A DNA stretch of 64,000 bases from an uncultured Lentisphaeraceae bacterium. GTDB lineage: Bacteria > Verrucomicrobiota > Kiritimatiellia > RFP12 > DVOR01. Under the pieces are notes generated by a model. The model was given only the letters and a program-made list of their open reading frames with translations, searched no databases and had not been told where the DNA came from. The number at the start of each line of letters is the position of its first letter. Position 1 is the stretch's first letter. The DNA is taken from assembly GCA_964478335.1 (NCBI GenBank), contig CAYZIC010000001.1, positions 3,638 to 67,637 on the forward strand, in the 5' to 3' direction. Shown one piece after another: positions 45,575 through 64,000 of this stretch. The position numbers and the translations under genes are program-made.

Positions 45575-45914
45575 TATTGATAGACCTTTGCTAAAACAAC
45601 AAAACTTCATAAATATACCATAAATCATCCCGTAAATCAAGCATAATCCGGAGGGAAAGAGCAGCAGAGGTGCGAATGTTTCTTCTGAAACCTGCAATAA
45701 TAGATGTCGCCCCTCGCCGATGGGTGACGTGGCAAAACATCCTTAGAGGCGTAGACGCCACCTAACGCACGCTTTAGATTCGTGGAGAATGTGCCCCTAA
45801 AAAACAAAAGACCCACGCAATTTGCGTAGGCCCAATAAATATGGTGGGCCAATGGGGGAGATATTCTAACTTTAGGGGCGGTTGCGGGAGATATTATCAG
45901 ATTGTTAGCGGCAT

Positions 45915-45939
45915 AAAAAAGCCACCTTTTGGGGGTGGC
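45915..45939 (-). terminator. rho-independent terminator (minus strand) closing the prophage accessory genes
   Basis: GCCACC(CCCAAAA)GGTGGC is followed by TTTTTT on the minus strand. Confidence 0.4.
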
Positions 45940-46137
45940 TGCGGGGTCAGGATTTTGCGTGGGCTCTGATAGCTGCTGATACCCAGCTGACGCGGTCGGC
46001 TCCTGGCGGGATGCTGGCGAGAGCTGCGGTCTCAACCCTGATGACGCTGGTCTCTGGGCGCGGCTTGTCGCCCCAGCGGCTGCGGGCTCCTAGTTGGCCC
46101 GCTGCGCTTTTTGTCGGCACTTTGCTCATTGGTACTC

Positions 46138-46617
46138 CTAGCAGCCAAAGGGCATGACGCACCAACCGCATGGGCGGTCGCCTCCAACGGGTTCGCAATA
46201 GCTATAGCCGATTTTGGCAAGCTCTGTTTGGATAAAATCGGCGATTGAGTTGGATTGCCATTCGTCGTTGCAAGATTCTTCCTTGCTGTGGTTTTTAATC
46301 TCATAGCCATTGTTATAGATCTCCCACGCAATAACCAGGCCTCTAAGATTAGCGTCACAATCATTCCACGCAAAGGCCTCAAGGCCTTCGGTCAAAAAGC
46401 GCACGCCCTCGTAAGTTAGGCTGATGTCAGCCATTTCGCCATACTCGGCCTTGATGGATTTTTGGATATTTTCAAGCGTCTGCTCGACAAGTGCGAGGTC
46501 GTCGAGGGCAACTTGATTGAGCAACTCGATCAAGGCCTCCTGCTTGTCTTTACGTTTGGAGATCGTATTGATGCGGTGGGCGGGGTCAAAAGTTACTGTA
46601 ATTTTGCGATTTTTCAT
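46138..46617 (-). CDS. hypothetical prophage accessory protein
   Basis: 159 aa, Cys-containing at the C-terminus (CGWCVMPFGC). An RBS AGGAGCACCACC precedes the ATG. Confidence 0.5.
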   Translation of the reverse strand: MKNRKITVTFDPAHRINTISKRKDKQEALIELLNQVALDDLALVEQTLENIQKSIKAEYGEMADISLTYEGVRFLTEGLEAFAWNDCDANLRGLVIAWEIYNNGYEIKNHSKEESCNDEWQSNSIADFIQTELAKIGYSYCEPVGGDRPCGWCVMPFGC

Positions 46618-46643
46618 GGTGGTGCTCCTTTTTGTGGGGGTGC

Positions 46644-61046: not shown

Positions 61047-61061
61047 TGATAGATTCCTTTC

Positions 61062-62243
61062 TTAGATTTCAAATGCTTCGGGGTATTTCTTGCGAGCGTC
61101 GACATAACAACCGTCGCAATCTTTGATTGCTTGAGCCATCCGATCAAAGCGGCTCAATGCGGGCTTGCTTTCGCCGCCCATTGCCTTAGCGGCTGCTGCT
61201 GCGCTAGCTTGTTTGATCGCGTCCTTTTCGGCCTGAGCTTTTGCGAGCTGATCCTTGAGGTCTGCGATCTCTTTGTCTTTGGCTGCTGCTTCTTCGGCGG
61301 CCTTGGCGGCTGCTTCAGCTGCTTTGGCTGCTTCTTCTTCGGCGGCCTTTGCGGCTGCTTCTTCTTCAGCGGCTTTAGCGGCTGCTGCTTCTTCAGCGGC
61401 CTTAGCGGCTGCTGCTTCTTCAGCGGCCTTAGCGGCTGCTTCTTCGGCGGCCTTAGCGTCAGCTTCGGCCTTACGTTTACGTGCTTCGAGATCCATCTCT
61501 CCGCCTCCTTTTTCCTGGTTAACGAAAGCCTCAGCGACTGCGACAGCAGCTCTGAGGGTTGTGTAGTTGCTCGGTCGATCCCGCTTGGCAGCGGTAAAGA
61601 GCGAGCCCTCACGGGCCGCAGCCCGAATAAGTGAGGACGTGGCTGCTTGGTCAATGACCATAGCGGCCTCGTCCTGCTCAATGATGGCATCAACCAGACC
61701 ATGCTCGAGCAAATCCTTGGCGGATAAATTGGTGTCAACGCCGTCAGCTAACCAGCTATCTGCTACTTGCTCAGATACGCCGCAGGCTGTGAGCGATGCC
61801 TTGATACTCTGGTTAATGATGCGCAGCGCGTGTGCCTCGCTCTCGAGCTGGCTTGCAGATGCGGTATCGCTAAAAAATACGGAACACTGATGCACCATAA
61901 ACACGGTGTAATCGTGAGCGGTGACTTTGCAAAACTTTGACAAGCGCAGCGCAATGACCGATGCCATCGATGCGCAATAAGAGCCGAGCTGGATGCGGTG
62001 ATCTGGCGAGGGGTTGTTGGCAATATAGCTCTTGATCATCTCGATGATCTCATAGCCTGAGTCAACGACTCCGCCGGGCGATGAGATGCGGATATCAAGC
62101 GGGCGCCCGCCTGCTTCGGCGAGCGCTTTTGCGACAAGGTGGGGCATCGTGACGATGCCTGCGTCGATCTCTTGCTGGTAATACCATAGCAAATTAGAGG
62201 AGGTATCGATCACACCTGAAAGATTAAGCTGGTAGCGTTCCAT
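61062..62243 (-). CDS. prohead protease (ClpP/S49-like) fused to an Ala/Glu/Lys-rich scaffolding domain
   Basis: The N-terminal ClpP-like motif IRISSPGGVVDSGYEIIEMI is present. The C-terminal repeats AAKAAEEAAAAKAAEE are encoded by about 30-bp tandem DNA repeats at 61290-61460. Confidence 0.6.
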   Translation of the reverse strand: MERYQLNLSGVIDTSSNLLWYYQQEIDAGIVTMPHLVAKALAEAGGRPLDIRISSPGGVVDSGYEIIEMIKSYIANNPSPDHRIQLGSYCASMASVIALRLSKFCKVTAHDYTVFMVHQCSVFFSDTASASQLESEAHALRIINQSIKASLTACGVSEQVADSWLADGVDTNLSAKDLLEHGLVDAIIEQDEAAMVIDQAATSSLIRAAAREGSLFTAAKRDRPSNYTTLRAAVAVAEAFVNQEKGGGEMDLEARKRKAEADAKAAEEAAAKAAEEAAAAKAAEEAAAAKAAEEEAAAKAAEEEAAKAAEAAAKAAEEAAAKDKEIADLKDQLAKAQAEKDAIKQASAAAAAKAMGGESKPALSRFDRMAQAIKDCDGCYVDARKKYPEAFEI

Positions 62244-63898
62244 TATTCTTCGTCTCCATTATTATTTGCGGGCTCTGGTGCGCTGGCGCTGCCACCGACG
62301 ACTGCGGTCGCTGGGTGGACGATGCCAGCAGCGCGGCACGCTGCGACTTCTTCGCCGATTTGCTCGACCACGTTGCGCCAGTCAGGGCCGTGGACGGCCT
62401 TAAAGGTCGTGGTACCGTTGGACAACTTGAGGCGTGTCGCCTCTTGGCTGGACTTTTCGTCGACCTCGATCGGCTCTGGCCAACTCCAAAAGAGAGACCG
62501 CTGCCAACCGTCTGGCGGCATGGGCAATCCGCCAGAGGCGACAGCGGTGAGGATTACATGGTAGGCGACCCAGTCACAGACTGCTCGCTCTAAATCTTTT
62601 TTGTCGCTCTCCCAAATTGGGCGAGCGAGGACTTGCGACCCTCTAAAAGCTGAGTAGCTGCCGCTCGGATTGAGCGTAGCGTATTGAGCGCCCATGCCGC
62701 GGCTTGCTGCAATGATGCCCAAAAAGCGGTCGATAAAGTCCATCGTTTTAACGTTCGGGCGGTTAAAATCGAGCATCTTGATATCGTAGCCAGCAGGCAT
62801 CTCGACAATCTTTGCGCCCTTGCTGGTCAGTCCGGAGAGGTCGATGTCTTGGGGGGCATCCTCAAAGTCTGCATCCTCATCGGCGATCACGCCTGGAGGC
62901 AGCTGGTCTGATGGACCTGCTTGGTCAAACGCTGCTTGATCGGAGATGCCAGGGAGCGCACGGTAAGCGTCTGGCATCTTTTCGGCGGCTTGCTCTTCGG
63001 CCGAGCGGACGATCTGGCCCATAATGGCAGAGTTTGCTTTGACCGCATCGATCTCGTAAGCGTCGACCTCTTTGAGATTGAGCGAGGCAAAAATTGAGGA
63101 GCAGGCCTCAGGGAGGCCGCGACCTTGGTTTTCGCGCTCCGTATTTGACACGTAGACCCAGCATTGGTCATCGATGTCCTCAGATGGATCGCAAGTAAAG
63201 ACAAGTGCTTTATCTCGAGGATAAACAAACTTGCCCTTGCAGGTTTTGGAGAGGATGACTCCGCAAAAGCGGCCGAAGCGATCATAGATGCGGCCGTGCG
63301 CTTGGCGATATCCTTGATCTGCAAAACTCTGAAAATCGTCTTTTGAGAGCGGCCCGATTTCGTCGGCTGCAAAAACTGCGATCTTGCCTGATCCGATGAT
63401 TGGGCAGGTGGCGGGGTCGTCGTAGACGATGACAAAATCACCCTCATTATCGAGCGCGGAGATTGCGTTTTTGAGAACGTGATTAAAAGATTTGCGGTCG
63501 GTAAACTCGCAGCAGCGAGCCCAGCGGCGGAAGTATGCGCCTGCTGCGACATTAAAGTCTTGATCGATCGTCGTAAATTGGAGGTTGCCGCCGACAGCGC
63601 CGACGATATTGACGCGGCGCTGCTTGTCGAGGGTTTTGCTGGTGGGGTGATTGCGGACAAGATCACGCATCTGGGCAATGAGCTTGAGACGTTTGGGATA
63701 AGTGAGCAGGGTGTCCTCGTTGCCGCACTCAACGGCAACGGTGGGGACTTTAGATGCCGAGGCACCATCCACAGAGTCGTGACTGTTTCTGCGGATGGTG
63801 ACTCGGCCAGGAGCTCCCCCGCGTTTGACGGGGGTTTGCTGTGAGATTGCTTGAGCGGGCTCTTCAGGGCCCTTAAATAATCCAGATAAAAAGCTCAT
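62243..63898 (-). CDS. phage portal protein
   Basis: 551 aa, first gene upstream of the protease. The size and order fit a portal. Confidence 0.55.
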   Translation of the reverse strand: MSFLSGLFKGPEEPAQAISQQTPVKRGGAPGRVTIRRNSHDSVDGASASKVPTVAVECGNEDTLLTYPKRLKLIAQMRDLVRNHPTSKTLDKQRRVNIVGAVGGNLQFTTIDQDFNVAAGAYFRRWARCCEFTDRKSFNHVLKNAISALDNEGDFVIVYDDPATCPIIGSGKIAVFAADEIGPLSKDDFQSFADQGYRQAHGRIYDRFGRFCGVILSKTCKGKFVYPRDKALVFTCDPSEDIDDQCWVYVSNTERENQGRGLPEACSSIFASLNLKEVDAYEIDAVKANSAIMGQIVRSAEEQAAEKMPDAYRALPGISDQAAFDQAGPSDQLPPGVIADEDADFEDAPQDIDLSGLTSKGAKIVEMPAGYDIKMLDFNRPNVKTMDFIDRFLGIIAASRGMGAQYATLNPSGSYSAFRGSQVLARPIWESDKKDLERAVCDWVAYHVILTAVASGGLPMPPDGWQRSLFWSWPEPIEVDEKSSQEATRLKLSNGTTTFKAVHGPDWRNVVEQIGEEVAACRAAGIVHPATAVVGGSASAPEPANNNGDEE

Positions 63899-64000
63899 TC
63901 TGTCACGTCCTAAAATCTAAATCCAAAAATGGAGATACGGCGGCGGGGGCTGCGGCCAAATGCTCTTGCAAGGCGATCGGTAATCGCAGCATATTCCGCG

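Follow-up and report, generated by a model that had tools for sequence, protein, structure and literature searches.

A probable siphovirus prophage arm with accessory genes beside a Gfo/Idh/MocA-MetG locus in an uncultured Lentisphaeraceae bacterium

Head and tail genes at the locus

The DNA analyzed here is a stretch of 64,000 nt from contig CAYZIC010000001.1 of an uncultured Lentisphaeraceae bacterium (hereafter the window, to which all coordinates refer), whose last 18 kb or so hold a block of phage genes that is probably one arm of a siphovirus prophage. Open reading frames (ORFs) were listed over 43-64 kb, and a tightly packed minus-strand series was found to run from 63898 to 48077, followed by three further ORFs that extend to 46138. 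The head and tail genes, in their direction of reading, are as follows.

63910-64000, minus strand: 3' end of an upstream ORF (…AEYAAITDRLARAFGRSPRRRISIFGFRF*), read from the sequence and cut by the window edge
62243-63898, minus strand: portal protein of the lambda family, 551 amino acids (aa); PF05136 and phrog_21
61062-62243, minus strand: ClpP-type prohead maturation protease with a C-terminal Ala/Glu/Lys coiled coil, 393 aa; PF00574 and phrog_94
61062-61496, minus strand: candidate for a scaffold nested in the protease gene, 144 aa; AAGGAGG followed by an in-frame ATG (61496) where the coiled coil begins
60009-61046, minus strand: probable major capsid protein, 345 aa; positional homologues and weak fold matches
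58088-59997, minus strand: four putative head-completion/neck genes, 110, 131, 239 and 167 aa; position and size
57647-58063, minus strand: probable tail tube protein, 138 aa; position directly 5' of the chaperone pair
56992-57629, minus strand: tail assembly chaperone G, 57327-57629, 100 aa, with its -1 frameshift form G-T, which ends at 56992; slippery heptamer and open -1 frame
55560-57008, minus strand: tape measure protein, 482 aa; phrog_9483 and phrog_13338
54098-55560, minus strand: two putative tail-tip/distal tail proteins, 309 and 176 aa; position
52935-54101, minus strand: tail fibre with internal duplication, 388 aa; phrog_14 and PDB 9d93

The portal, protease, tape measure and fibre all matched phage families, in line with the phage origin that the initial annotation had proposed from the sequence. 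First, the portal protein matched PF05136 with an E-value of 2.4e-27 (96.5 bits; cut-off 32.9) and phrog_21 with 3.3e-26, and its best matches among GenBank phages were the annotated portals of Burkholderia phage Mica and of Chi-like phages (22-26% identity). The truncated ORF at the window edge sits where an 81-aa ORF in related contigs and gp13 in phage Chi, a small gpW-like ORF, precede the portal. Second, the protease matched PF00574 (2.7e-10; 40.8 bits, cut-off 20.2) and several head-maturation protease families of PHROGs, with E-values down to 4e-23 (phrog_94). Its ClpP domain comprises residues ~40-190, the C-terminal ~145 residues form a scaffold-like Ala/Glu/Lys coiled coil, and a 27-nt tandem repeat in the gene (seven copies, 61281-61484) encodes AAKAAEEAA-type units. 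The proteases of the related contigs carry the same kind of coiled-coil tail, with a similar C-terminal end. In phage lambda, Nu3 is nested within C; a comparable arrangement could exist here, in which the ATG at 61496 would yield a separate scaffold of 144 aa. The relatives do not keep this start at the corresponding position.

The 345-aa gene that follows the protease probably encodes the major capsid protein. Its product had no sequence or profile match in Pfam, PHROGs, NCBIfam or PDB, no tblastn match among 50,697 GenBank phages, and no hhalign match to the capsids of Mica and Chi, and a full HMMER scan of 1.84 billion representatives yielded only six distant homologues (E-values from 3e-10 to 6e-5). 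Among loci fetched by portal similarity (each designated by L and a number), a homologue was located directly after the protease in L001-L004 and L009 (6e-13 to 5e-16), L001 being scaffold_3761 of ENA ERZ1049276 and L009 being IMG/VR UViG_3300045988_184042. The AlphaFold2 model built from a 7-sequence alignment was poor (predicted local distance difference test (pLDDT) 42, predicted template modelling score (pTM) 0.40), and the single-sequence model was unusable (pLDDT 30). The top Foldseek matches of the former, low-confidence model were nearly all of the HK97 fold, including the prophage capsid 3BJQ, encapsulins, the capsids of phi29, PhiTE and SaPIbov5, and many BFVD entries named 'major capsid protein'; none was significant (best E-value 0.03 in PDB and 0.002 in BFVD).

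Judging from position, size and synteny, the next four proteins would serve in head completion and the neck. No family match (Pfam, PHROGs) or PDB match was found for any of them, and the same interval contains four small genes in both Chi (97/121/208/167 aa) and L001 (176/115/180/177 aa). The 239-aa protein ends in a Lys-rich C-terminal tail of ~55 residues (…KKLKKAKKKIKQQSKKVARVVKRQVKSAKKSIKKVAKTTKKRSRSKR; 58588-58760, minus strand), which is unusual for a head-completion protein. The 138-aa protein has a homologue of equal length at the corresponding position in L001-L003 (4.6e-5), and both its position and this positional homologue suggest that it is probably the tail tube; it likewise had no family (Pfam, PHROGs) or PDB match. 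No tail sheath was matched in the family scans and no sheath-sized gene is present between the neck genes and the chaperones, thus the tail appears to be non-contractile.

The chaperone genes carry a frameshift signal. A canonical X XXY YYZ slippery heptamer (C CCU UUU) is present at 57345-57339, three codons before the stop of the 100-aa ORF, no stop interrupts the -1 frame from ahead of the heptamer as far as 56992, so that it overlaps the start of the tape measure gene, and stable hairpins lie downstream (z -4.3). The chaperones of L001 have the same layout, with UUUUAC in the corresponding place and a T segment homologous to that of the window, and Chi is annotated with the same joined chaperone coding sequence.

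The tape measure protein, which starts at ATG 57008 and is equal in length to the NCBI call P0013, matched phrog_9483 (1.2e-11) and phrog_13338 (4e-15) and has a homologous counterpart of 457 aa in this position in L001 (1.5e-12). Tail length follows a rule of ~1.5 Å per tape-measure residue, and 482 residues therefore predict a tail of ~70 nm. The 309-aa protein encoded next is homologous to a 325-aa ORF after the tape measure in L001 and L003 (3.5e-6); by position and synteny, this protein and the 176-aa protein are putative tail-tip or distal tail components, and neither had a family (Pfam, PHROGs) or PDB match. The fibre matched phrog_14 (2e-7), phrog_9574 (3e-7) and PDB 9d93, 'tail collar fibers gp4' (9.9e-10), with weak matches to the R2 pyocin fibre, and its gene contains a 95-nt internal duplication (53302-53396 and 53713-53807, 76% identical). 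Taken together, these matches and signals uphold the 551-aa portal, the ClpP-like protease fused to an AEK-repeat scaffold, the G/GT chaperone, the 482-aa tape measure and the fibre with an internal repeat, all of which the initial annotation had named.

Overlaps of 1-4 nt (ATGA or TAATG type) were observed at eight junctions (portal/protease, 239/167, tape measure/309, 176/388, 388/258, 258/106, 106/231 and 231/47, genes being named here by protein length), and the remaining junctions mostly have gaps of 2-24 nt, so the genes are tightly packed and partly coupled in translation. All of the ~25 ORFs of the phage block are intact and many of them are translationally coupled. It had been stated previously that every gene is on the minus strand with overlapping start and stop codons. 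The minus-strand chain from 63898 to 48077 was confirmed; however, a 63-aa ORF on the plus strand lies within it (50297-50488) and fewer than half of the junctions overlap. The array consists of three units (63898 to 50500, 50232 to 48077, and an accessory cassette from 47941 to 46138). Small minus-strand genes were found or re-delimited at 51007-51150 (47 aa), 50817-50990 (57 aa) and 50500-50805 (a lipoprotein), for the last two large genes, starts at 49865 (356 aa) and 48790 (237 aa) replace upstream TTGs, and the true start of the neighbouring Gfo/Idh/MocA gene is at 45574. A 298-aa plus-strand ORF antisense to the tape measure gene and other antisense ORFs were judged to be spurious.

Related contigs and known phages

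The only protein with 100% identity to the portal was one NCBI entry, encoded on a contig of 79,591 nt. The next-best portals were 30-36% identical to that of the window and were found on ENA and IMG/VR contigs of 20-34 kb. A scan of genome collections with the single portal sequence returned nothing, and a scan with a portal alignment returned only four distant contigs of metagenome-assembled genomes, labelled Bacteroidales, Lentisphaerales, Anaerovoracaceae and Paludibacteraceae. Several relatives encode a GpA-nuclease-type terminase of 774-787 aa ~2 kb upstream of the portal, among them the ENA contigs L001, L002 and L097 (ERZ28653838 scaffold_2899; 774-779 aa in these), and L002 also has a ParB-like gene. 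The closest relatives found were uncultured contigs such as L001, L097 and L009 (portal identity 33-36%), which share with the window homologous capsid, tube, tape measure and post-tape-measure proteins in the same order, the same chaperone frameshift layout and a protease with a coiled-coil tail. On the other hand, the protease and most of the other proteins went undetected by BLAST or phmmer, and everything past the tail tip differs. Each phage protein of the window that was looked up formed a singleton cluster on a single contig.

In some of the distant relatives, the portal genes are interrupted solely by in-frame TAG (L005 at 3535; L007 at 395-1601; L008 at 10646; L013 at 5700; L015 at 3282 and 3708; L016 at 10757), a pattern which suggests that some members of the group recode amber stops. 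The window phage has no in-frame stops and follows the standard code.

The siphovirus gene order given in the initial annotation agrees with our comparison, since the same order is found in lambda-like and Chi-like siphoviruses and in the ~20-34 kb uncultured phage contigs that have the nearest portals. With the lambda head module (W-B-C/Nu3-E), the window shares a lambda-family portal (PF05136) with a small ORF directly before it, a ClpP/S49-clan protease with a C-terminal scaffold in frame, and a probable capsid gene of ~340 aa. The G/G-T frameshift before the tape measure is also lambda-like, as would be an accessory region at the tail end by the attachment (att) site, and relatives of the window phage carry a large terminase of the GpA_nuclease type. 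In contrast with lambda, the window has no D-like decoration gene between protease and capsid, its capsid has no detectable similarity to any Pfam capsid family, its tube (138 aa) is much smaller and its tape measure (482 aa) shorter, a J-like central fibre is lacking, and the portal is only 22-26% identical to those of cultured phages. Salmonella phage Chi (Casjensviridae; KM458633) has one of the portals nearest to that of the window in GenBank phages (26% identity over the C-terminal 35%), and its genes are identical in order and very similar in size, the series being TerL, a small ORF, portal (560 aa), protease (438 aa), major capsid protein (354 aa), the four small genes mentioned above, a tail protein, frameshifted chaperones and a tape measure. 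However, Chi is a virulent phage of 59 kb, its tail protein has 381 aa, its tape measure is much longer, and gp16 separates its protease from its major capsid protein; no protein of Chi except the portal was detectably similar to the window.

This gene content also bears on the suggestion, raised in the initial annotation as an alternative, that the block is a tailocin (a phage-tail-like bacteriocin) or some other tail-only machine. The short tape measure, the many exported proteins and the lack of lysis or terminase genes in the window would fit such a machine, whereas the portal, the prohead protease with its scaffold and the protein in capsid position contradict it; to our knowledge, F-type tailocins have no head genes. 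We consider a tail-only origin scarcely credible.

Host context and the phage/host junction

The remainder of the window is mainly housekeeping in nature. It encodes MetG, SpoU, a TRAP transporter, HydF, LpxD, phosphatidylserine decarboxylase, chorismate synthase and TatD, as well as a CbiQ/ABC/CobN cluster, T2SS-F, several N-methyl pilin-like proteins and an F5/8 type C protein. This gene content points to a diderm strict anaerobe as host, possibly a member of the Planctomycetes-Verrucomicrobia-Chlamydiae group. The only tRNA gene, a tRNA-Thr(TGT) at 8867-8942, has no adjoining phage genes. The phage block adjoins the MetG/Gfo genes directly, as had been described before. A metagenome scan with the Gfo protein identified relatives with 65-71% identity, and in L017-L020 (65-69% identical) Gfo followed by MetG is preserved, with none of these contigs carrying any window ORF upstream of Gfo. 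Thus, the conserved neighbourhood does not include the phage block. In the 65%-identical relative L019, homologues of genes that lie ~40 kb away at the window start are found less than ~3 kb after metG (L019 7646-12755 versus window 385-5487), which indicates that the host neighbourhood has been rearranged between relatives.

Phage and host genes are separated by one non-coding feature.

45575-46137, no strand assigned: non-coding junction zone, 563 nt; minus-strand terminators at 45940-45920 and 45833-45809

If the acidic accessory cassette next to this zone is phage-borne, the phage/host boundary lies within 45575-46137. We think that it is phage-borne, because its genes are ORFans on the same strand as the phage genes, have their own promoter and terminator, and show a tetranucleotide usage marginally closer to that of the phage. 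Tetranucleotide correlations were 0.81-0.91 within the host part, 0.87 within the phage part and 0.73-0.78 across the junction. A blastn comparison with the upstream regions of the relatives gave nothing usable for placing the boundary.

This difference in signature between the two parts, though slight, is what one might expect if a free phage genome had been joined to a bacterial contig during assembly or binning, and the junction has no recognisable att features; moreover, related portals occur on contigs binned into four unrelated taxa, so that binning of such phages is unreliable. However, the join lies within one contig and not merely within a bin, GC content and GC content at third codon positions (GC3) are equal on both sides, and the junction falls in ordinary intergenic DNA that holds terminators but nothing repeated that might confuse assembly. 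In a prophage, one would also expect host DNA to border on the tail/accessory end. An artefact of this kind therefore appears very improbable.

A somewhat less remote alternative is a defective prophage remnant, or a head-tail cluster domesticated by the host in the manner of a gene transfer agent (GTA). Like GTAs of the RcGTA type, the block is a compact head-tail cluster of ~15-18 kb that runs from portal to distal tail genes, with a short tape measure and no lysogeny genes nearby, and no terminase, integrase or lysis gene was seen in the window. The source contig is 79,591 nt long and thus extends at most ~15.6 kb beyond the window, which would be just enough for the rest of a phage of ~32-34 kb, provided that the window begins where the contig does. 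Nevertheless, none of the ~25 ORFs is disrupted, their coupling is tight, and the frameshift signal has been preserved. GTAs are conserved vertically in their lineage, whereas the proteins of the window are singletons and the cluster is absent from relatives that keep the same Gfo-MetG flank, which is the opposite of the pattern of a domesticated GTA; no vertical conservation in related genomes was observed. Furthermore, this is a lambda-family portal, the nearest portals are located on phage-sized contigs with terminase and ParB-like genes, and in a lambda-type map int is at the opposite end, so that its absence here is to be expected. On this balance, a remnant or GTA-like cluster seems unlikely.

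We consider it probable (roughly 85%) that a temperate siphovirus is integrated in the chromosome of a diderm anaerobe and that the region from 45.6/46.1 to 64.0 kb represents the late (virion morphogenesis) arm of this prophage together with its terminal accessory region; the prophage itself may be complete. Several observations weigh against this interpretation. Terminase, lysis, replication, repressor and integrase genes and a second att site are not in the window. The neck, tube, tip and 'distal fibre' roles are positional assignments only, and the capsid model was of low confidence with no significant fold match. The relatives share nothing upstream of Gfo, which shows the absence of the phage and not a clean insertion point. 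There is no step in GC or GC3 at the boundary, and the interval 45575-46137 contains no tRNA, Rfam match or att-like repeat (repeats were searched within the window). The window ORFs that were scanned included no integrase and the junction has neither a tRNA nor a repeat, in agreement with the earlier statement that no integrase or att site is visible in the window. In a prophage of the lambda type, the tail/accessory end adjoins host DNA and int is located at the opposite end; thus, the absence of an integrase here is uninformative.

Based on this gene order, a scheme of virion assembly can be proposed. A late promoter beyond the window would drive leftward, minus-strand reading of the arm. 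The portal would nucleate a procapsid in which the 345-aa protein, as capsid subunit, assembles on the coiled-coil scaffold domain; this domain is borne by the ClpP-type protease and may in addition be produced on its own from the internal start. The protease would then strip the scaffold. A lambda-type (GpA) terminase, expected just upstream outside the window, would package the DNA, and the four small proteins would seal the head and make the neck. The 138-aa tube protein would polymerise round the 482-aa tape measure to give a tail of ~70 nm, with chaperones G and G-T (the latter by -1 frameshifting at CCCUUUU) holding the tape measure in tail assembly, and the 309-aa and 176-aa proteins together with the 388-aa fibre would make the tip. 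The layout as a whole would match the b-region at the J-proximal end of the lambda prophage, with the integrase at the far end.

On the prophage interpretation, ~18 kb of this contig would be mobile phage DNA and not core genome, which matters chiefly for annotation, and functional labels are now available for a block that family searches had left almost wholly hypothetical. The lineage appears to be very poorly sampled, considering the six distant capsid homologues in 1.84 billion representatives and none in 50,697 GenBank phages, and through this prophage a set of uncultured phage contigs of ~20-34 kb could be tied to a bacterial host. The element is ordinary in kind, its proteins being so divergent that most of them have no recognisable relatives, and nothing found here contradicts existing knowledge of prophages.

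Exported proteins and accessory genes

Past the fibre gene, the following features were found.

50500-52935, minus strand: six exported or membrane protein genes; translations and hydropathy
50297-50488, plus strand: ORF of 63 aa with two transmembrane segments; strong Shine-Dalgarno sequence (AAGGAGCTCC-ATG), within a 267-nt gap
48077-50232, minus strand: three-gene unit of 117 aa (coiled coil and C-terminal transmembrane segment), 356 aa and 237 aa; ORF calls
48024-48055, both strands: bidirectional intrinsic terminator, A5-CCGCAG-loop-CTGCGG-T7; free energy (dG) -17.6 kcal/mol, z -3.5
46138-47941, minus strand: accessory cassette of three acidic ORFans; promoter and ORF calls

The proteins of 258, 106 and 231 aa have signal-peptide-like N-termini and are followed by a 47-aa transmembrane protein, a 57-aa protein and a 101-aa lipoprotein with the lipobox LTGC, which closes the run of six. 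These N-termini and the lipobox, recognised from translations and hydropathy, bear out the several secreted or lipoproteins that had been placed after the fibre. None of the six had a family match in Pfam, PHROGs or PADLOC, and tail accessory, lysis or exclusion roles are candidate functions for them. The 258-aa (52159-52935) and 231-aa (51150-51845) proteins are weak paralogues (23% identity over 158 aa) with a common C-terminal GGVLVD. Proteins with signal peptides are likewise encoded after the tail genes of the relative L012. No recognisable endolysin was found in the window.

The 63-aa plus-strand ORF is convergent with the lipoprotein gene and is a probable gene. To judge from its sequence, it may be moron-like, or encode an exclusion or toxin peptide; it had no family match in Pfam, PHROGs or PADLOC. 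The three proteins of 117, 356 and 237 aa had been labelled distal fibres. This label is unsupported, as no match to any of them was found in Pfam, PHROGs or PADLOC.

The structural/late block is closed by the bidirectional terminator at 48055-48024, whose hairpin stability accords with the prediction made from the sequence at the outset, and a second A/T hairpin is present at 47980-47955. The accessory operon that had been predicted past the terminator was recovered as a three-gene cassette reading from 47855 to 46138, with its own promoter and terminators. Its genes encode proteins of 157 aa (47382-47855), 228 aa (46644-47330) and 159 aa (46138-46617), and its promoter is sigma70-like (TTGTAA-17-TATAAT, 47941-47913). 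The proteins have pI values of 4.05, 4.22 and 4.66 and a D+E content of 16-21%, and they are not paralogous to each other. The start motif AAAGGAxxACCxxxATGAAAA is common to the three genes and absent from the rest of the window. The 228-aa ORFan had no homologue among 5.8e9 proteins, and searches of PADLOC, Pfam and PHROGs with the accessory and exported proteins returned nothing beyond sub-threshold noise. The only family signal in the cassette, a match to AcrIC5 (8e-4, 19.9 bits), was not accepted, being below the 27-bit cut-off and within a low-complexity acidic stretch.

The cassette would be best read as a set of lysogen-expressed accessory ('moron') genes adjoining the attachment site. 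Together with the membrane ORF on the opposite strand, it provides candidates for lysogenic-conversion or anti-defence functions. A bolder conjecture, which we regard as rather unlikely, is that the cassette encodes new DNA-mimic anti-defence proteins, in principle similar to Ocr, ArdA or AcrIC5 and expressed in the lysogen or early in infection, and that the phage founds a lineage, at family level, of small siphoviruses that infect uncultured diderm anaerobes, some of its distant relatives being amber-recoded. Finally, a 16-nt inverted T-tract/AGGGG element (88% complementary; 45794-45809 and 48000-48015) flanks the acidic cassette by the terminators, and it may be a chance product of low complexity.

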